NCBI GenBank assembly: GCA_041665545.1
Contig: JBAYIQ010000001.1
Coordinates: forward strand, 137,911-201,910
Length of the DNA stretch: 64,000 nucleotides
Direction: 5' to 3'
From: Patescibacteria group bacterium
GTDB taxonomy: Bacteria > Patescibacteriota > Patescibacteriia > UBA1558 > GWA2-36-10
Shown here: piece after piece, positions 12,641 to 57,257 of the stretch
Layout of the letters: each line of letters opens with the position of its first letter
Position numbering within the stretch: position 1 is the stretch's first letter
The notes under the pieces: model-generated
Databases searched by the model: none
Told to the model about the DNA's origin: nothing
What the model saw: only the letters and a program-made list of their open reading frames with translations
Program-made: the position numbers and the translations under genes

Positions 12641-12692
12641 AAAAATAAGTATTAGCTTAATAATAATACGACTTAATTATAAAATCTTTCGG

Positions 12693-12744
12693 CAAAAAAA
12701 ACAAGCCCCAACCTCTGCACGCGTTGTGCAAAAAAGGTTGGGGC
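12693..12744 (-). terminator. intrinsic terminator of high-GC cassette 1
   Basis: GCCCCAACC ... GGTTGGGGC stem followed by U-run on minus strand, 20 nt after stop. Confidence 0.7.
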
Positions 12745-12762
12745 CCGTACGAATCTTGGAAA

Positions 12763-14079
12763 CTAGGCGGCTTCCGCACCCTCGGCAATGTAGGGTGCGA
12801 TCGACCCGAGCTGTCTGTCCACCAGGACACGCAACTCGCTGCGACCAGCGAAATCGGTCTTAGCCACAGCATCGACGGCCAGTTTGACGGCCGAGCCGAT
12901 ATCGGGATTATTGAGAGCGGTGACCAGAGGCATCAGCTCAGCCAGACGAGCATCGCCCTTGCCCTCGGCAGTGATCACTGCGATCCTCTTGTCGAGGGCG
13001 GTCTTGACGACATCGATACGCTTGGCCGCCAGCTCGTTCAGTCGAGCCTGAACCTCTGGGCTGGGTGTCGGGTCCTCAATCAGAACACTCTTTACCTTAT
13101 AGCCCGAAACGCTTTCCAGCCGGGCAATGGCCTCATCCCAGTTCGCGTCTTCAAAGACGCCGCCGACTTGGATCTTCTCCAGAGTTTGACCCTTAAGGAG
13201 AACCCGAAAGTCAGCACCGAAGATTTCACTCGCATACTTGACCAAGCCGGCATCAGTCCGCACCTCGGGCGGAGCAGACCAATAGGCATTCAGATTCTCC
13301 GGCCCATCAAGAATGGGGATGAACTTAACATTTACATCTCCCCCGACCTCGATATCGGGTTCACCATCAAGACCTGGGATCTTGCCACCAAGAGTAGGTA
13401 TTTTCTCAGTGACACAAGAGAGTTGTAAACCACGTCTTTCCAGGACGACATTGAATTCGAGACCTGGGGCATTCCTAGGAATCTTCGTCCGGTGGAAACC
13501 GTTGTAGAAGACATACTTGTCGAACATCCACCAGGCGTGAAAGCAACGGCGTCCGAACAGTTTCGGCGTCCATAGTTCCTGCTCCGGAACCTGAATGTTC
13601 ATGATGGCCATCGTAGATCCCGTGGCCAACGACCAAAAAATCACGGTCACCATGTGACCAAATGTCAGGATACCCAAGGTCAGGCACACGCCAGTCACAA
13701 TTGTCGAATAGAATGCCCAGGTGTCTCGCTTGTTGCCAAGCCACGGCCGCGGTTTGTAGGTGTAGTAGGCCTGTAGCGCCGTAATAGCCGCAACGAGCAG
13801 TGCCAACACCACACGAAACCACGGGAAATTGTGGGAGACCTCCTTACCAGCTGTCTTTCCAACTGTCACAGCTGTCTTTACGTCCTCAACTACAGCCGAC
13901 GGCGCAAAAAACAGCCAGTGATGGTTCCAGGAAGCGGCCAGCACTCCCACAGCCAGCAAGGCCGTGGTAATGATCGCTCTCCACCCCACCTTCAGCTTTG
14001 TGCTGTTATTGACCAGCGCGGCAACAACGGACACGATGATCGCAATCACCGCATCAAGGACGAACTTGTTCTGAAACAT
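12763..14079 (-). CDS. high-GC membrane protein with C-terminal SPFH (band-7/prohibitin)-like domain (438 aa)
   Basis: AAAGGAGGGG RBS 2 nt before ATG; 4-5 N-terminal TMs; SPFH-like core (FGRR...PGLEFNVV...) and Ala/Glu-rich tail (AVITAEGKGDARLAEL); G+C-rich vs flanks. Confidence 0.75.
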   Translation of the reverse strand: MFQNKFVLDAVIAIIVSVVAALVNNSTKLKVGWRAIITTALLAVGVLAASWNHHWLFFAPSAVVEDVKTAVTVGKTAGKEVSHNFPWFRVVLALLVAAITALQAYYTYKPRPWLGNKRDTWAFYSTIVTGVCLTLGILTFGHMVTVIFWSLATGSTMAIMNIQVPEQELWTPKLFGRRCFHAWWMFDKYVFYNGFHRTKIPRNAPGLEFNVVLERRGLQLSCVTEKIPTLGGKIPGLDGEPDIEVGGDVNVKFIPILDGPENLNAYWSAPPEVRTDAGLVKYASEIFGADFRVLLKGQTLEKIQVGGVFEDANWDEAIARLESVSGYKVKSVLIEDPTPSPEVQARLNELAAKRIDVVKTALDKRIAVITAEGKGDARLAELMPLVTALNNPDIGSAVKLAVDAVAKTDFAGRSELRVLVDRQLGSIAPYIAEGAEAA

Positions 14080-14112
14080 GACCCCTCCTTTGGGGTAATA
14101 GGTTAACGATTG

Positions 14113-29712: not shown

Positions 29713-29741
29713 TTGACAGGTTTTTAATTATATGCTATCAT
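29713..29741 (+). promoter_or_regulatory. rnpB promoter TTGACA-N17-TATCAT (TGc extended -10)
   Basis: TTGACA 29713-29718, TATCAT 29736-29741. Confidence 0.55.
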
Positions 29742-29769
29742 ATTTTATTGATCTTCGAAATAACGAGTT

Positions 29770-30103
29770 GGGGGGTGTTGGGACGCTCGAGAAGTCCTGG
29801 GGACACCTGCTAGTTGTGGTCAGGGCCCGAACTGTTTGGGCTCGCTGTAATCCCGCAAAGGTTAGCGGGTGCAGTTTATCAGACCACGGATGGCAATCCT
29901 GATCCTTGTCTGTTGGGACAATGGGGATGGACCCGTCTTATCGTCGTCCCGAGGCCTCGGGCGACCAGCTGGCAGTGCCGATTTTTGAAAAACGTTCCCC
30001 ACAGACGGTGACGTGAAGCGCTCACGTTTCCTAGCGGGGATATCCTTGGCCAGGAGAGAATACAGGCCTCGGCTTACCTTCAGGACTTGTCCTGGCACCC
30101 CCC
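29770..30103 (+). ncRNA. rnpB: RNase P RNA (bacterial type)
   Basis: P1 pairing GGGGGGTGTTGGGAC / GTCCTGGCACCCCCC; CR-I-like CGAGAAGUCCUGGGG; CR-V-like GAGAAUACAGGCCUCGGCUUAC. Confidence 0.75.
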
Positions 30104-30119
30104 GTGTTCCTACCGATGA

Positions 30120-30160
30120 GGAGTCTTTGTCTACACCATGGCAAGACTCCTTTTCTTTTT
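30120..30160 (+). terminator. rnpB terminator
   Basis: GGAGTCTT ... AAGACTCC stem followed by TTTTCTTTTT. Confidence 0.7.
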
Positions 30161-30220
30161 GTTTAAAATAAAGAAATACCGCCGTCGAACCAGTGGGTTC
30201 GATGGCGGTACGAAATGTCC

Positions 30221-30412
30221 CTACACCTTCATGCAGGGAGCGTGAGGTGTGTCGCGATGCAAGCGCAGCTTCTCGGGAGTGATGTTGTTCCCGCACTCCG
30301 CCATACTGCACTTGACGCAATGCTCGCTCTTGAGGTGCCGAAGCCCCCTTTCCGAACGCGGAAGCGTTCTCCTGTTCGCATTGTTCCCCTTGGTGACCTG
30401 CTTCTTGCCCAT
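30221..30412 (-). CDS. high-GC small basic Cys/His-rich protein (63 aa)
   Basis: CAAGGAGGGA RBS 3 nt before ATG 30412; MGKKQVTKGNNANRR...HCVKCSMAEC...HAPC; own promoter and hairpin terminator (30180-30213). Confidence 0.55.
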   Translation of the reverse strand: MGKKQVTKGNNANRRTLPRSERGLRHLKSEHCVKCSMAECGNNITPEKLRLHRDTPHAPCMKV

Positions 30413-30460
30413 GGGTCCCTCCTTGAGATACATGATCACCAACGAAAGAGCAGTCTATAT

Positions 30461-30489
30461 ATTATGTATAGAAATTATTCTTTTGTCAA
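30461..30489 (-). promoter_or_regulatory. promoter of cassette 2 (TTGACA-N17-CATAAT)
   Basis: tgtcaa 30484-30489, attatg 30461-30466 on plus strand. Confidence 0.5.
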
Positions 30490-33958: not shown

Positions 33959-34946
33959 TTTTTTCAGGTGTAATAATTTTATAAATCAAACTACGAAATG
34001 GTCCGGGCACGCTCTTACCCAAGGCGCAAAAGCTAGTATTTTCCATAACCAAAAATAAATCATTCAAAATCGCTTGGTCAATCATGCGTTTGTGCACCAT
34101 TTCAGCCAGACGATAAACTCCCTCGCGACAAGGCGTGCATTTATCACAATTGGCTTCCATAAAAAACTTGGCCCAGCGATAAAGTAATAAATAGGGGTCA
34201 GTTTTTTGCTTGTCATAGACTACAATGGCGCCAGATCCGCCCACTGGGCGATCAAGCTCACTGCTTAAAAAAATCTCCCTGCTAGCGCCCCCACCAGCTT
34301 GCACAAAAAAATCTTTTTTGGGCCAAGAGCCAGTTTTTTCCAAAACATCTTTGATGGTCAAGTCCAAAGCCATTTCATGAACGCCTGATTTTTTGACATC
34401 ACCAGAAATCGTATAAAATCTGGTCTGCTGATAATCATCGTGCGCTATTTTGGAAACACAATAAAAAGTTTCAATATTATTTATCAGTGTAGGGTAGCCG
34501 TAAATACCTTTTTGACCGGGAAAAGGCGGTCTGATTCTTGGGCGCGCTAATTTATTTTCTATTTCCTCACAGACAACAGTTTCTTCGCCAGACAAATATC
34601 CACCCTTTTCTTCAAAGACCGTAATTGGCGCTTTGCCAATTATTTTTTCCAAGGGTTTTTTGAAACGGCGATAATATTTTTTGTTTAAATAAATTATACC
34701 CACACTTCCAGGGATACAAGCCAGAGCTTGCTTAACTCCATCAACTAAAATATTAGCGTGATGTTGTAAAATAAAAAAATCTTTGTGGACATTGGGTTCA
34801 CCTTCTGAACCATTAGCCACAATATATTTTTTGCTCCCACTGGCATCAAGCACCATTTGCCACTTCAAATAAGTAGGATAGGCGGCTCCGCCACGCCCTA
34901 GTAAATTACTTTGTTTTAATTTTTGTATTAAATCTTTTTTAGCCAT
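33942..34946 (-). CDS. NuoF/HndC-like NAD(P)H-binding flavoprotein subunit
   Basis: GRGGAAYPTYLKW, ANGSEGEPNVHKD, C-terminal CDKCTPCREG cluster. Confidence 0.8.
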   Translation of the reverse strand: MAKKDLIQKLKQSNLLGRGGAAYPTYLKWQMVLDASGSKKYIVANGSEGEPNVHKDFFILQHHANILVDGVKQALACIPGSVGIIYLNKKYYRRFKKPLEKIIGKAPITVFEEKGGYLSGEETVVCEEIENKLARPRIRPPFPGQKGIYGYPTLINNIETFYCVSKIAHDDYQQTRFYTISGDVKKSGVHEMALDLTIKDVLEKTGSWPKKDFFVQAGGGASREIFLSSELDRPVGGSGAIVVYDKQKTDPYLLLYRWAKFFMEANCDKCTPCREGVYRLAEMVHKRMIDQAILNDLFLVMENTSFCALGKSVPGPFRSLIYKIITPEKNGQKN

Positions 34947-34994
34947 AATTAAATATTATTTTACCATATTTTGGCCTTAAAGAAAAATTTGACA

Positions 34995-35368
34995 AAAAGA
35001 AAACAGGGAGGACTTTGCCTGATGGCGCGATCCTCCCTGTGCGTGGTACAAGCGGCCATTCGGCCGCGCGGCGTTCGGGCTTGGCCAAACATCCAGACTG
35101 CACCTGTCCAGACCCACTTGTAGACAACGGCGAATTCCGCTGTAGACGAATGGTCGTTGACCTTAGGGCTCCTAGCCGCAATACCCGATATCGGTGGGCT
35201 CCGCTGGCTCGGTATCAGCCAGAACAACGACTATGGCGTTGTTATGAGAAATATGTGGAGGCCCAAGCGCTTGGTATTTGGCCAGCTGACCAGCCGAACC
35301 CGCCAAGGGAAGAGCCGAACAGCGGTCTAGCCGTGGCTTTGGGCCCCCTTGAAAAAAGAGCGTACTAA
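34995..35368 (-). ncRNA. GC-rich structured RNA of unknown class (about 375 nt)
   Basis: Own promoter (35375-35403) and terminator CAGGGAGGA...UCCUCCCUG+U-run (35004-35039); many local hairpins; no ORF with RBS. Confidence 0.6.
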
Positions 35369-35374
35369 GGGGAA

Positions 35375-35403
35375 ATAGTAGCATAATATCTAATTTGTGT
35401 CAA
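35375..35403 (-). promoter_or_regulatory. promoter TTGACA-N17-TACTAT (TGc extended -10) of the 35-kb RNA
   Basis: tgtcaa 35398-35403, atagta 35375-35380 on plus strand. Confidence 0.55.
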
Positions 35404-35457
35404 TAACAACAAAAAACTGCCAAAATTAGCAGTTTTTTAGATGACAACCAATATTTA

Positions 35458-36114
35458 CTATTTTTTATCAAGATTTTTACTAGCTTCTTGATAAATTAAA
35501 CTTAATCGATCATACCAAGTATTAAAAAACATTTCAAACTCTGCCCTAACTTTTACCAAATCCTCCTTATGTTCATAAGTATTGACCTCTTGCTGAAACT
35601 CGTTATAATCCATATCCCACTGATGAATTTGGCTGATAATTATTTTTTTTACTTCGCCGGCAATTTTAGGAACTATATTCAGTACTAATTCTCGCCGCAA
35701 ATCAACTATTTTCTTTGATTTTTCTCTTATATATTTAGCGGCCTCACTAATTTGCTCACCGGCATCAGGGGTTTTTTGTTCTGTTTCCGGGCTATCAACT
35801 TCTCTAAGGGCGTGCTCAACTAATTTATCAGTGTCATCAGCGGATGATGGGGCCGCAATACTTTCTGTTTCACCACCATCATTAAAGGGAGATGCTAAAA
35901 TGCTTTCTAGTTCTCTAAACTTTTGAGCGGCTCCTGGAGCGGTCAATTCAGTCAAACGCTGACTCAGTATCAAAATTCTTTTATCATCATCTGCTACTCC
36001 TTGGGCGATCAATTTTTGACGCTCGTCATATAATTTATTTATTTCCTCCTGCCTCGCATCTTCAACTCTATGTCGTGGTGTATCCTCAACAAAGCCTGAT
36101 AATTTTTCAGTCAT
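35458..36114 (-). CDS. hypothetical acidic coiled-coil protein (218 aa)
   Basis: Clean ORF, host-like composition. Confidence 0.55.
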   Translation of the reverse strand: MTEKLSGFVEDTPRHRVEDARQEEINKLYDERQKLIAQGVADDDKRILILSQRLTELTAPGAAQKFRELESILASPFNDGGETESIAAPSSADDTDKLVEHALREVDSPETEQKTPDAGEQISEAAKYIREKSKKIVDLRRELVLNIVPKIAGEVKKIIISQIHQWDMDYNEFQQEVNTYEHKEDLVKVRAEFEMFFNTWYDRLSLIYQEASKNLDKK

Positions 36115-51800: not shown

Positions 51801-52700
51801 ATGGATTACCCGCGGAACTCGGTCTGCATCTATCACAGTGCGGACAATGACGGCGCTTGCAGTGCGGCCATCGCCAAGTTGGCGGCTCGTGTCAGACTGA
51901 TCCCCTGGAATTATGGACACCCCATACCCTGGGAGAGAATACCCGTCGGCGCTACGATCTTTGTGGTCGATCTGCTGCTCACCAGCCAGAACGACAACAG
52001 TGGTTTCCAGGACATGGAGCGCCTGCGCAAGATCGGTAAGCTCGTCTGGATTGACCATCACGACAAGGCCATCAACGACGCCAAAGTGTTGGGTTTGGCC
52101 TATGATGGCATCCAGCGAGTTGGTCAGGGCGCTTGCGCTTTGACCTGGGAATATTTCTTCCCCAACAAGCCCATGCCCGAAGCAGTCCGGCTGATCAGTA
52201 ACTTCGATGTCTTTGACCATAGGGAGGTAAAGACAGTCCATTTCCAGTACGGCTTGCGTGCTTGCAATGCCAAGCCCTGGATGGACATTTGGAAAGATCT
52301 TCTTAAGCCACCCTTCCAAAGCGATGCTCTGGTCAACCAGCTGGTCAGTGATGGTATCCCCATCACCAAGTACCTGACCTTGGAATTCGCCCGCTACATG
52401 CGAGTCTGTGGCTTCGAGACTATTCTCGACGGGCACCGTGCCATTGCGGTGAATCGTGCTCTGGTCAACAGCCAGATCTTCGAATCTGTACACAACCTCG
52501 AAGACTATCCGTTGCAGATGTACTTTTACTGGAGCTCTGACGGCTCATGGAAGGTGAGCATGCGTTCGCCCGACGGTCGCGTGAACTGTGCAGAACTCGC
52601 AGCCAAGTACGGTGGTGGCGGACACAGCCGAGCAGCCAGTTTCGTGTGCCAGGAACTGCGCTTTGAACTCAAAGGGCGACCTGACGCCGATCCTGACTGA
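51801..52700 (+). CDS. high-GC DHH/DHHA1-family phosphoesterase (NrnA-like, 299 aa)
   Basis: YHSADNDGACS (DHH motifs I-II), WIDHHDK (DHH), YGGGGHSRAAS (DHHA1 GGGH); CTGGAGGAC RBS. Confidence 0.85.
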   Translation: MDYPRNSVCIYHSADNDGACSAAIAKLAARVRLIPWNYGHPIPWERIPVGATIFVVDLLLTSQNDNSGFQDMERLRKIGKLVWIDHHDKAINDAKVLGLAYDGIQRVGQGACALTWEYFFPNKPMPEAVRLISNFDVFDHREVKTVHFQYGLRACNAKPWMDIWKDLLKPPFQSDALVNQLVSDGIPITKYLTLEFARYMRVCGFETILDGHRAIAVNRALVNSQIFESVHNLEDYPLQMYFYWSSDGSWKVSMRSPDGRVNCAELAAKYGGGGHSRAASFVCQELRFELKGRPDADPD

Positions 52701-55853: not shown

Positions 55854-55882
55854 TTGACAAGATATGAAATGTGTGATATAAT
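55854..55882 (+). promoter_or_regulatory. promoter of cassette 5 (TTGACA-N17-TATAAT, TGa extended -10)
   Basis: TTGACA 55854-55859, TATAAT 55877-55882; 5' UTR hairpin CGTGGT/ACCACG. Confidence 0.6.
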
Positions 55883-55958
55883 ATAAAATCGTGGTTAATT
55901 TCTACCACGTGCACCTTAGCAAGACACAAGGTAAATATGGCCAATGGAGGTCCTTGAA

Positions 55959-56693
55959 ATGGAAAAGACCGAAAAGACCGCCTTTGCTGTTCTGCACATG
56001 AGCCGTCACGAATCCAGCTCGCCCCAAGCCAACTATGGCCTGGGAACACTGGGTCCCATGGACTACCGCGGAATCCCGGTTCGCTACCACCCCAATTCCT
56101 TCATGCGTGACTCCGGTTACCGCATGCTGGAAATCCAGCTCCCGAAGAACCAGAACGAAGCGGGAGTCGCGATGGCTGTCATGCACGCAGGTCAGATTCG
56201 GGGAGCCATCAGTTCCCTGCAGGATCAGCTCAACAGTCTGACACCGGAAAAGATCTCCCACTACAACCTGATGATCAACGAACTGCTTCGCAAGGGCTAC
56301 CTGATGCACAGCCAAGTCCTCTACTTCAAACCCTGGCAATCCGGTCTCGTGGCCAAGTACGGCTGGGGCATCAATGGCTCTGGTGGCATGGTCATGTTCG
56401 GACAGAACAACTTCGGACAGAGCTTCGGAGTACAGGCCGGACACCAGCTGGTGCAGGTGGTCTTCCGACCCACTCCGTACGCCGACGGACTGATCTGTCG
56501 CTACGGCTGGGGCATCACCGTATGCCAGCCGGAAAGCATCAAACGTGTGCTGAGTGGTCTGCGCAAGCAGCTCGACAACGCCGTGTTCTTCCAGGAGCAC
56601 GGCTGTCTACTCGAAGACTTCGATCGGCCGAGTCTGGCATGCCGACTGATCGCCCGTCAGGCGACCCACGCGTGCCAGCAAACCACCGCATAG
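55959..56693 (+). CDS. high-GC hypothetical protein (244 aa) with duplicated YGWGI motif
   Basis: GGAGG 8 nt before ATG 55959 (tracked ORF starts 55944); VAKYGWGINGSGG and ICRYGWGITVCQ; no family recognised. Confidence 0.65.
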   Translation: MEKTEKTAFAVLHMSRHESSSPQANYGLGTLGPMDYRGIPVRYHPNSFMRDSGYRMLEIQLPKNQNEAGVAMAVMHAGQIRGAISSLQDQLNSLTPEKISHYNLMINELLRKGYLMHSQVLYFKPWQSGLVAKYGWGINGSGGMVMFGQNNFGQSFGVQAGHQLVQVVFRPTPYADGLICRYGWGITVCQPESIKRVLSGLRKQLDNAVFFQEHGCLLEDFDRPSLACRLIARQATHACQQTTA

Positions 56694-56771: not shown

Positions 56772-56800
56772 TTGACAATAGCTATATTATATGCTATAAT
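56772..56800 (+). promoter_or_regulatory. promoter of cassette 6 (TTGACA-N17-TATAAT, TGc extended -10)
   Basis: TTGACA 56772-56777, TATAAT 56795-56800. Confidence 0.6.
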
Positions 56801-56858
56801 ATTAAATGTACCCCAGGATTCTAGTCTCGGGTTGTTCATTTCCAAGGAGGGATTTCTC

Positions 56859-57257
56859 ATGAGTCCGAAACAGCTTGCTGCCATCCCGTTCTGCATTTTG
56901 ACCGTAGTTGCCATGTTCTTATGGGTTGCCGGTCGTCCCACTGGCAAGCCCGACACAACGCGACTCTTCTCAATTGGGACTGATGCCCATCAGGTTCCGT
57001 GTGGTGACATCGGCTACGATGCCACCTTCCGCTACTATGCCGGAAACGACACGGCGGGCGTGACGGTAGCCAATCTCAATCCCGGGCTCGTAACGATCCA
57101 TCTCATGGATCGCCTGAGCAGGGATATCTACGGACGCAAACCCGTGCGGATCAACGGTGATCAGGCCAACCTGGAGATCATCAACAACGCCACCAATGAG
57201 GTGATTTGCCGCTGGCAGATCACCATCGATCGTCAGGTCGGTGTTGCCACCCGCTGA
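56859..57257 (+). CDS. high-GC small membrane-anchored/secreted protein (132 aa)
   Basis: CAAGGAGGGA RBS 7 nt before ATG 56859; N-terminal hydrophobic helix AAIPFCILTVVAMFLWVAG. Confidence 0.65.
   Translation: MSPKQLAAIPFCILTVVAMFLWVAGRPTGKPDTTRLFSIGTDAHQVPCGDIGYDATFRYYAGNDTAGVTVANLNPGLVTIHLMDRLSRDIYGRKPVRINGDQANLEIINNATNEVICRWQITIDRQVGVATR

Follow-up and report, generated by a model that had tools for sequence, protein, structure and literature searches.

Large structured RNAs of unassigned function are rare, and past cases have turned out to be ribozymes, the cores of ribonucleoproteins (RNPs) or, lately, RNA-only cages. The Patescibacteria (candidate phyla radiation, CPR) have genomes of ~0.5-1 Mb, from which many 'essential' functions have been lost. 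Among the described systems closest to the element considered here, the RNase P RNA and the large RNAs OLE, ROOL and GOLLD act through their three-dimensional fold (PMC12286853), and the RNase P RNAs of CPR bacteria are diverged, 10 of 35 being missed at standard Rfam thresholds (PMC8172020). The 64,000-nt stretch of a Patescibacteria genome analysed here (contig JBAYIQ010000001.1, positions 137,911 to 201,910; the window) carries, directly upstream of a NuoF-like/[FeFe]-hydrogenase operon, a GC-rich block that is held with high confidence to be a genuine structured RNA gene. The explanation favoured here, with somewhat better than even confidence as a whole, is that the block is a gene transcribed on its own and encoding a structured non-coding RNA of ~370 nt, that the RNA represents an undescribed family of a shallow Patescibacteria clade and that it acts in trans.

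The predicted transcript and its fold

A first-pass annotation, made from the sequence alone, had proposed a structured non-coding RNA of ~375 nt with its own promoter and terminator, and both elements are kept in 12 of 12 distinct homologues. Coordinates are window positions, and the RNA gene and all its parts lie on the minus strand (Table 1). The homologues come from loci fetched via relatives of the NuoF-like protein, which gave 11 more distinct RNA versions besides the window's own, every one at the same place, between a fast-evolving hypothetical gene and NuoF. They fall into A-type RNAs, like that of the window (L040, which equals L041-44, L006, L005, L038 and L017), and B-type RNAs (L008, L019, L009, L016, L039 and L022); identity is 88-93% inside subgroups and ~51% between the two types.

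The promoter proposed earlier was recovered by a promoter scan as TTGACA, a 17-nt spacer and TACTAT (35380-35375), with 10 of 12 matches and the TG of an extended -10 box. The window site thus reads TTGACA-N14-TGC-TACTAT, near-consensus and recognised as a consensus match, and the pattern TTGACA-N14-TGn-TAnnnT is kept in all 12 homologues. At the other end of the unit, the strong terminator that had been noted is likewise borne out, stem and U-run being found in all homologues (98% paired, with compensatory changes). From these two elements, the 5' end of the RNA is predicted at a conserved UAG ~9 nt past the -10 box and its 3' end within the U-run. The unit is insulated against transcription from upstream by the terminator of a 218-aa hypothetical gene (35458-36114), which lies 5' of the RNA gene on the same strand, and every homologous locus has a counterpart of this terminator ahead of its RNA promoter. 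The description of the block as GC-rich also stands, with values of 0.52-0.60 in 200-nt windows of the RNA body, and 0.57 overall, against 0.397 for the window. The minus strand is the sense strand. The many G·U pairs in the conserved helices mark it as the transcript, its minimum free energy (MFE) is -156 kcal/mol (z = -3.55, or -4.7 in separate shuffles), and the sense fold beats the antisense fold in 12 of 12 homologues (z -3.3 to -6.7).

Examination of the homologues for covariation, which the first-pass annotation had suggested, revealed a conserved structure with compensatory changes above both shuffled and slid controls; together with the conserved promoter and terminator, this is what a structured non-coding RNA gene should display. 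The first-pass interpretation is thereby supported, and none of the refuting outcomes it named arose in the computational tests. For the 5' half, a 12-sequence alignment was tested over the four named helices P1, H4a, Pa and Pb (23 pairs). Pairing reached 98.5%, compared with 26-47% when the partners were slid, seven pairs had changed on both sides and none of 500 shuffles reached the observed pairing or covariation. In a full-length alignment of the B-type RNAs, a 15-helix model of 81 pairs was 90.3% paired, compared with 34-45% after sliding, with 12 pairs changed on both sides and no equal among 500 shuffles; its low-scoring helices (Pa, Pe and Pf) are those visibly misaligned by MAFFT. RNAalifold predicted 49 pairs from nine sequences, 27 of them with compensatory changes. 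Because MAFFT misaligns several helices across the subfamilies, the 3' helices were segmented by hand from the sequences. These are 98% paired, and compensatory changes occur in five of them, namely a long-range helix, the junction-closing helix, Pf, Pg and Ph. Because the sequences are close relatives, the shuffles make the evidence look more independent than it is, and the sounder support comes from the slid controls and the diversity of pair types. The conserved structure is branched, comprising at least 12 helices over ~330 nt in at least two domains.

Of the five helices listed earlier, four were confirmed by covariation: GGCCCAA/UUGGGCC (P1), AACAACG/CGUUGUU (Pa), CUGGCU/AGCCAG (Pb) and GCGGCC/GGCCGC (Ph). 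The fifth, CCCCUU/AAGGGG, was not supported: it draws on bases 3-8 past the -10 box, which precede the start predicted at ~35366 and are probably not transcribed, it and P1 compete, and neither L005 nor the B-type homologues have it. In P1, pairing is complete (100%) across the 12 sequences at the seven core pairs that were tested, and at one P1 position GU, UA, CG, GC and UG all occur. Within the domain that P1 closes, the CCG/CGG hairpin becomes CCA/UGG in L006, L040 and L038, and the B-type RNAs have other hairpins there. The invariant GGCGGGU may be unpaired, may pair with CGCU or may serve as a site of tertiary or ligand contact. In the B-type, the H4a loop AAGCG is able to form a pseudoknot with a downstream CGCUU (100% paired, one compensatory change).

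Further towards the 3' end, UCGGGU (35188-35183) overlaps hairpin Pc, and its alternative partner GCCCGA (35080-35075) would close the 3' domain. A long-range helix does occupy the Pc position in the B-type and in L017 (CGGGUUC/GGRCCUG and CGGAGCC/GGCUCUG), with compensatory changes. Ph varies as GCGACU/AGUCGC, GUGACU/AGUCAC and GCAGCU/AGCUGC. The Pg loop, of consensus NGGURCA, probably pairs with the 3' tail UGURCC, which would compact the 3' domain. Nine of the ten long forms can make this pairing and L022 can make part of it, but it shows no compensatory changes. In the two short forms, L005 and L038, Pb, the junction, the Pg loop and the tail are all missing together, a joint absence that would fit such a pseudoknot. 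The periphery is modular, with an extra hairpin in L008, L019 and L022 and an inserted Pf hairpin in RNAs of the window type.

Two further pairings are doubtful candidates. One would join GUACGC of the 5' leader to the 3' tail; it has a compensatory-looking change in L005 (UUACGC/GCGUAA), but L038 lacks a partner and the pairing overlaps Ph. The other, a UUCGCC/GGCGGG helix of B-type RNAs, has no A-type counterpart.

Table 1. Features of the RNA gene and its flanks, in the order of transcription
Feature	Position	Strand	Details
Terminator of upstream 218-aa hypothetical gene	35411..35438	-	intrinsic terminator, from scan
Promoter-like site	35375..35403	-	-35 TTGACA 35403-35398; extended -10 TGC-TACTAT 35383-35375
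Predicted RNA, ~374 nt	34993..35366	-	ends predicted from promoter and terminator
5' leader	5' of P1	-	U-rich, conserved, single-stranded
Domain 1, closed by P1	35257..35348	-	GGGGGCCCAA (35348-35339) with UUGGGCCUCC (35266-35257)
Two small hairpins in domain 1	35315..35338	-	AGC-CACG-GCU 35338-35329; CCG-CUGUU-CGG 35325-35315
GGCGGGU	35298..35304	-	longest stretch invariant in 12 of 12 homologues
Hairpin H4a	35284..35295	-	GGCU-GGUC-AGCU; 97.9% paired, two pairs changed on both sides
Hairpin Pa	35223..35243	-	AACAACG-CCAUAGU-CGUUGUU; 97.2% paired, two pairs changed on both sides
Hairpin Pb	35204..35222	-	CUGGCU-GAUACCG-AGCCAG; fourth pair G-C to A-U (five versus four sequences)
Hairpin Pc	35183..35194	-	CCG-AUAU-CGG; candidate hairpin, invariant
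Hairpin Pd	35160..35169	-	GCC-CUAA-GGU; paired in 11 of 11 sequences, one-sided changes only
Three-way-junction region	35093..35158	-	closing helix, arms Pf and Pg
Junction-closing helix	AACG 35158-35155 with UGUU ~35091-35088	-	compensatory changes
Arm Pf	35154-35112	-	ACC...GGU, lineage-specific inserted hairpin; compensatory changes
Arm Pg	35111-35093	-	CUGGAC-AGGUGCA-GUCUGG; compensatory changes at four of five positions, ten sequences
Hairpin Ph	35052..35067	-	GCGGCC-GAAU-GGCCGC; compensatory changes at four of six positions
3' tail UGUACC	35045..35050	-	candidate pseudoknot partner of Pg loop GGUGCA (35104-35099)
Intrinsic terminator	34993..35039	-	9-bp GC-rich stem CAGGGAGGA...UCCUCCCUG 35039-35004; U-run UUUUCUUUUUG 35003-34993
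Extended -10-like motif of NuoF/HydA operon	34958..34966	-	TGGTAAAAT; downstream of the RNA terminator, not in the RNA
Palindromic hairpin before NuoF in relatives	L006:3936-3998; L005:1240-1303; L040:1436-1498; L017:1455-1497; L008:3960-3998; L022:1440-1498		

Distribution and genomic context

The RNA gene lies in a neighbourhood of genes for an SDR protein, the hypothetical protein, the NuoF-like protein (start at 34946), HydA and an MFS transporter, the [FeFe]-hydrogenase gene being next to NuoF in the operon. The clade that bears it consists of Parcubacteria-like metagenome-assembled genomes (MAGs). NuoF of the RNA-bearing loci is 78-96% identical to that of the window, whereas loci with a NuoF 60-65% identical (L010, L011, L012, L023 and L045) contain no such RNA, and in four of these five the intergenic space is just ~100 nt. 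Each locus has a single copy, and blastn and nhmmer detected no second one in the window. A pattern search of JGI metagenome contigs (TGGCGGGT-N65-95-CTGRCTG-N4-7-AGYCAGCGG) returned 14 matches, all due to chance, 13 of them in contigs of 58-72% GC and with no nhmmer similarity; a similar pattern (GGCGGGT...) had no match in viral contigs, and phages and plasmids gave no blastn match to the RNA. The known range is thus one shallow Patescibacteria clade, and its narrowness may partly reflect the reach of the searches run. The MAGs of L006-L009 (CAZILH01, CAYVXP01, CAYUER01 and CAYRIU01) are titled 'uncultured Gammaproteobacteria bacterium' despite their Patescibacteria-type locus, which is probably a mislabel.

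The alternative that survives best is that the RNA is a cis-acting leader, riboswitch- or attenuator-like, of the NuoF-like/[FeFe]-hydrogenase operon, which would then be driven by the strong promoter of the RNA, with a terminator that is read through on a signal. In its favour, 12 of 12 genomes have the RNA directly before the operon and facing the same way, and the window terminator ends 47 nt before the NuoF start codon. However, a constant position says little in so shallow a clade, and the operon has a promoter-like motif of its own between the terminator and NuoF. This motif is of AAAATATGnTAAAAT type in the RNA-containing loci, and a related one of TGnTAnAAT type precedes NuoF in all five RNA-less loci. 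Since this site belongs to the hydrogenase operon itself and is there even where the RNA is missing, the RNA has the appearance of a separate gene. The spacing between RNA terminator and hydrogenase promoter varies, too, with ~100-130 extra nt of unrelated AT-rich sequence inserted before the latter in L016, L022 and L038. The terminator itself is long and strong, and inspection revealed no alternative pairing that overlaps its 5' arm. Moreover, the ~330 nt that precede it are two to three times the length of known aptamer-plus-platform leaders, and riboswitch and T-box models alike fail to score at E<=10. A role as leader is accordingly unlikely, and the RNA is probably neither the leader of the adjacent hydrogenase operon nor an antisense regulator.

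Two observations concern the same intergenic region. In some relatives the segment from the hydrogenase promoter to the NuoF start codon contains a long palindromic hairpin (ACCCUGUUAAAU...AUUUAACAGGGU) built around a variable GC hairpin; it is absent in the window, L009, L016, L038 and L039, and could be a regulatory 5'-UTR (untranslated region) hairpin or a small inserted repeat. In L023, a different GC-richer block of ~270 nt is found upstream of NuoF on the opposite strand (L023:1110-1400, minus strand of the locus), with a clear terminator hairpin. It matches no Rfam family, has no similarity to the RNA described here and may be another unannotated RNA; NuoF of L023 is 63% identical to that of the window.

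A second alternative casts the RNA as a ribozyme, or as derived from a selfish or mobile element, that entered this intergenic region in the clade's ancestor. Its narrow and patchy distribution, with the next relatives lacking the RNA at the locus, and a GC content foreign to the genome would suit such an origin, as would the gain and loss of other small hairpin elements in the same intergenic region and the large pseudoknotted folds that are typical of ribozymes. Nevertheless, no transposase, reverse transcriptase, integrase, repeats or second copy occurs within 10 kb, the 64-kb window holds no second copy either, there is no phage, plasmid or viral match, and no known ribozyme or intron model scores. 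The compensatory upkeep of the fold at ~51% identity argues for selection on the host copy, and this origin is judged quite unlikely.

A third possibility is a regulator of the small-RNA type, which would base-pair through the U-rich 5' leader or the conserved loops. In favour of it are the stand-alone organisation, the Rho-independent terminator and the conserved 5' segment, which is single-stranded and rich in U, yet this RNA is much larger and more structured than typical base-pairing small RNAs. The sole plausible target match found, between the leader (UCUUUUUU) and NuoF codons (AAAAAAGA) of the window, does not recur in the B-type genomes, and this antisense target at the 5' end of NuoF was rejected for that reason. 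This reading is considered improbable.

Known RNA families and other GC-rich blocks

The statement that the RNA matches no known class has so far stood up to the Rfam search that had been recommended, which gave no confident match to a known family. With Rfam 15, the whole window yields only six tRNAs at the gathering threshold and no RNase P, signal recognition particle (SRP), transfer-messenger (tmRNA) or 6S RNA at E<=0.1. At E<=10 there is no match in the RNA body (34800-35600) or in eight homologous loci, the flanks giving only terminator-like chance matches, and ARAGORN detects no tmRNA in the window. As a control, the same searches did pick up tRNAs and, in L011, a SAM riboswitch. Searches of the literature turned up no description of the RNA. 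Since RNase P RNAs of the CPR can be missed, an Rfam negative is not decisive by itself, and the hallmarks of the families were additionally checked by eye in the 12 sequences.

The hallmark of RNase P RNA is the P4 pseudoknot, in which CR-I (GNAAAGUCC; ..GGAAAGUCC..), close to the 5' end, joins CR-V (ACAG..GGCUUA), close to the 3' end. The 12 homologues share no conserved string of the CR-I, CR-V or P4 kind, and AAAGUCC, present only in the terminator loop of the window, is not conserved. SRP RNA is characterised by the domain IV hairpin with its GNAR loop and GGAA/AGCA internal loops; this motif is absent on inspection of the 12 sequences, and no SRP model of Rfam matches at E<=10. Likewise, the homologues display no T-loop of GGUUCGA type together with its closing stem. 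Several resemblances to leader elements were dismissed, as they occur in only some homologues and have no covariance-model support: a T-box-like GGGUGGUAC in L016, an FMN-element-like GACAGGUGCAGUCUGGAUG in the window, the FMN-element string GACAG..AGUCUGGAUG, a look-alike of the B12 (cobalamin) box, and GCCACUG.

These results bear on a fourth alternative, a very divergent RNase P, tmRNA, SRP or 6S RNA that the covariance models have missed. Although CPR RNase P RNAs are known to be diverged (PMC8172020), and size and stand-alone organisation fit RNase P or tmRNA, the RNA has no P4-, CR-I- or CR-V-like sequence, tRNA-like domain, T-arm, CCA end or SRP domain IV, its branched fold is twice the size of 6S RNA, and neither the window nor the eight homologous loci give sub-threshold Rfam matches. 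A better RNase P candidate lies in the window at 29745-30160, and absence from loci with a NuoF 60-65% identical ill suits a universal RNA at a fixed locus, though this last point is a weak one. This alternative is most improbable, and it is likely that the RNA belongs to no described family.

The RNase P candidate is a second GC-rich RNA of ~415 nt on the plus strand (29745-30160, within a unit of 29713-30162; MFE z -5.7), and touches on the first-pass statement that RNase P RNA is found elsewhere in the window. Rfam gives no match to it at E<=10 and so does not confirm the statement, but CR-I-like GAGAAGUCC and CR-V-like ACAGGCCUCGGCUUA occur in the expected order. They are accompanied by a P1 helix (GGGGGGUG/CACCCCCC) and a P4-like pairing, GAGUC/GACUU, that is kept in the L009 homologue. 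The unit has a promoter (TTGACA-N17-TG-TATCAT, 29713-29741) and a terminator ending in UUUUCUUUUUG. By these motifs, it is probably the diverged RNase P RNA that was meant.

The remaining GC-rich islands of the window have no relation to the RNA by blastn or nhmmer, and several are protein genes with ribosome-binding sites. Two genes of 0.55-0.61 GC on the plus strand (55854-56693 and 56772-57257) have no Pfam match, and each possesses a perfect 12/12 promoter (TTGACA-N17-TG-TATAAT), a GGAGG ribosome-binding site and a terminator; the second encodes an N-terminal hydrophobic segment, and both look foreign or unusual in a genome of 0.40 GC. Convergent with the RNase P-like RNA is a GC-rich open reading frame of ~63 aa (MGKKQVTKGNNANRR...; 30250-30489, minus strand) with a promoter (TTGACA-N17-CATAAT), a ribosome-binding site (AAGGAGGG) and a terminator. 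A block of 0.54 GC on the minus strand (12676-14104) holds a 438-aa reading frame (12763-14079) of no Pfam family, and 51801-52700 (plus strand) is a GC-rich gene of the DHH/DHHA1 family.

The weakest alternative, a protein gene or decaying pseudogene of GC-rich foreign origin, could appeal to these islands with their perfect promoters and to stop-free stretches of up to 124 codons in the RNA region, but is effectively refuted already, as these stretches vary in strand and frame with no reading frame shared among the homologues, substitutions lack 3-base periodicity, being even over codon positions (chi-square p 0.08 to 0.96), 1- and 2-nt indels are common, variation is compensatory within helices and the region has neither a Pfam match nor a ribosome-binding site. 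The RNA gene does not encode a protein, and the first-pass dismissal of its reading frames was correct.

Proposed role and comparison with described RNAs

It is proposed that the RNA acts in trans through its folded shape, either as a protein-binding scaffold (RNP) or in an RNA-only assembly, with GGCGGGU and the loops GAUACCG and NGGURCA as likely contact sites. Action through a three-dimensional fold is suggested by its size, long-range helices, candidate pseudoknots, fixed core with variable periphery and few invariant unpaired bases, a signature like that of RNase P RNA, OLE, ROOL and GOLLD. The scaffold or RNP mechanism is nevertheless tentative, and is held with rather less than even confidence.

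A number of points weigh against the favoured explanation. The mechanism is proposed by analogy with other large structured RNAs. All homologues belong to a single narrow clade and share one genomic position; their close relationship inflates the covariation statistics, and synteny in a single clade at a single position cannot tell an independent gene from a hydrogenase-linked one. In the window RNA, either Pc or the long-range UCGGGU/GCCCGA helix may form, and the pairing inside domain 1 is likewise tentative. Finally, the transcript, its ends and its abundance are all predictions from the sequence.

Even so, a reduced genome that keeps a near-consensus promoter, and a fold maintained by compensatory change at ~51% identity, make it very unlikely that the RNA is idle. 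It provides a compact and well-delimited target for experimental study, and it illustrates that standard Rfam annotation misses structured RNAs in CPR genomes, a second missed one, probably the RNase P RNA, lying 5 kb away. A bolder view is that the RNA is the founding member of a new Patescibacteria-specific class of large tertiary-structured RNA whose task would be biochemical in its own right and not simply regulatory, whether as ribozyme, RNP machine or RNA-only assembly on the lines of OLE, ROOL or GOLLD. This is possible but doubtful; if true, the genome would devote ~370 nt and a near-consensus promoter to an RNA function new to biology. The importance of the RNA is limited chiefly by its narrow known distribution, which is one shallow clade and one locus.

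Among the described RNAs, the leaders of riboswitch and T-box type share the RNA's position upstream of an operon, in the same orientation and with an intrinsic terminator at the end, but none of their models scores at E<=10 and the operon downstream has its own promoter-like site. In common with tmRNA, it is of ~350-400 nt with likely pseudoknots and a stand-alone gene; unlike tmRNA, it has no tRNA-like domain, T-arm, 3' CCA or tag reading frame. 6S RNA, at ~180 nt, forms a rod whose large central bubble imitates an open promoter. The present RNA is branched and twice as long, and no 6S or Ms1 model of Rfam matches it; under the favoured explanation, the likeness to 6S and Ms1 would be that of an abundant, trans-acting, protein-binding RNA with its own promoter. 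Similarities to RNase P RNA are more extensive: both fall within 350-420 nt, are GC-rich in an AT-rich genome, are encoded by a stand-alone gene with promoter and terminator and combine long-range helices with peripheral helices gained or lost between lineages, and the CPR versions also escape Rfam thresholds. The difference is the absence here of P4 sequences and of the P1/P2/P3 order.

The ornate RNAs (OLE, ROOL, GOLLD, raiA and HEARO) differ in that their Rfam models do not match, that OLE, ROOL and GOLLD are longer, and that the present RNA occurs in Patescibacteria rather than in Firmicutes or phages; their typical neighbourhood (OapA/OapB, phage or prophage, IS605-type) is absent at this locus. 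Several of them form RNA-only homo-oligomers (PMC12286853), and it may be speculated that the self-complementary GUAC/UGCA in the Pg loop would permit a kissing contact. What this RNA and the ornate RNAs share is a length of hundreds of nucleotides, many conserved helices, candidate pseudoknots, a GC content high for the genome, a stand-alone unit, confinement to one lineage and a fixed core with a variable periphery.

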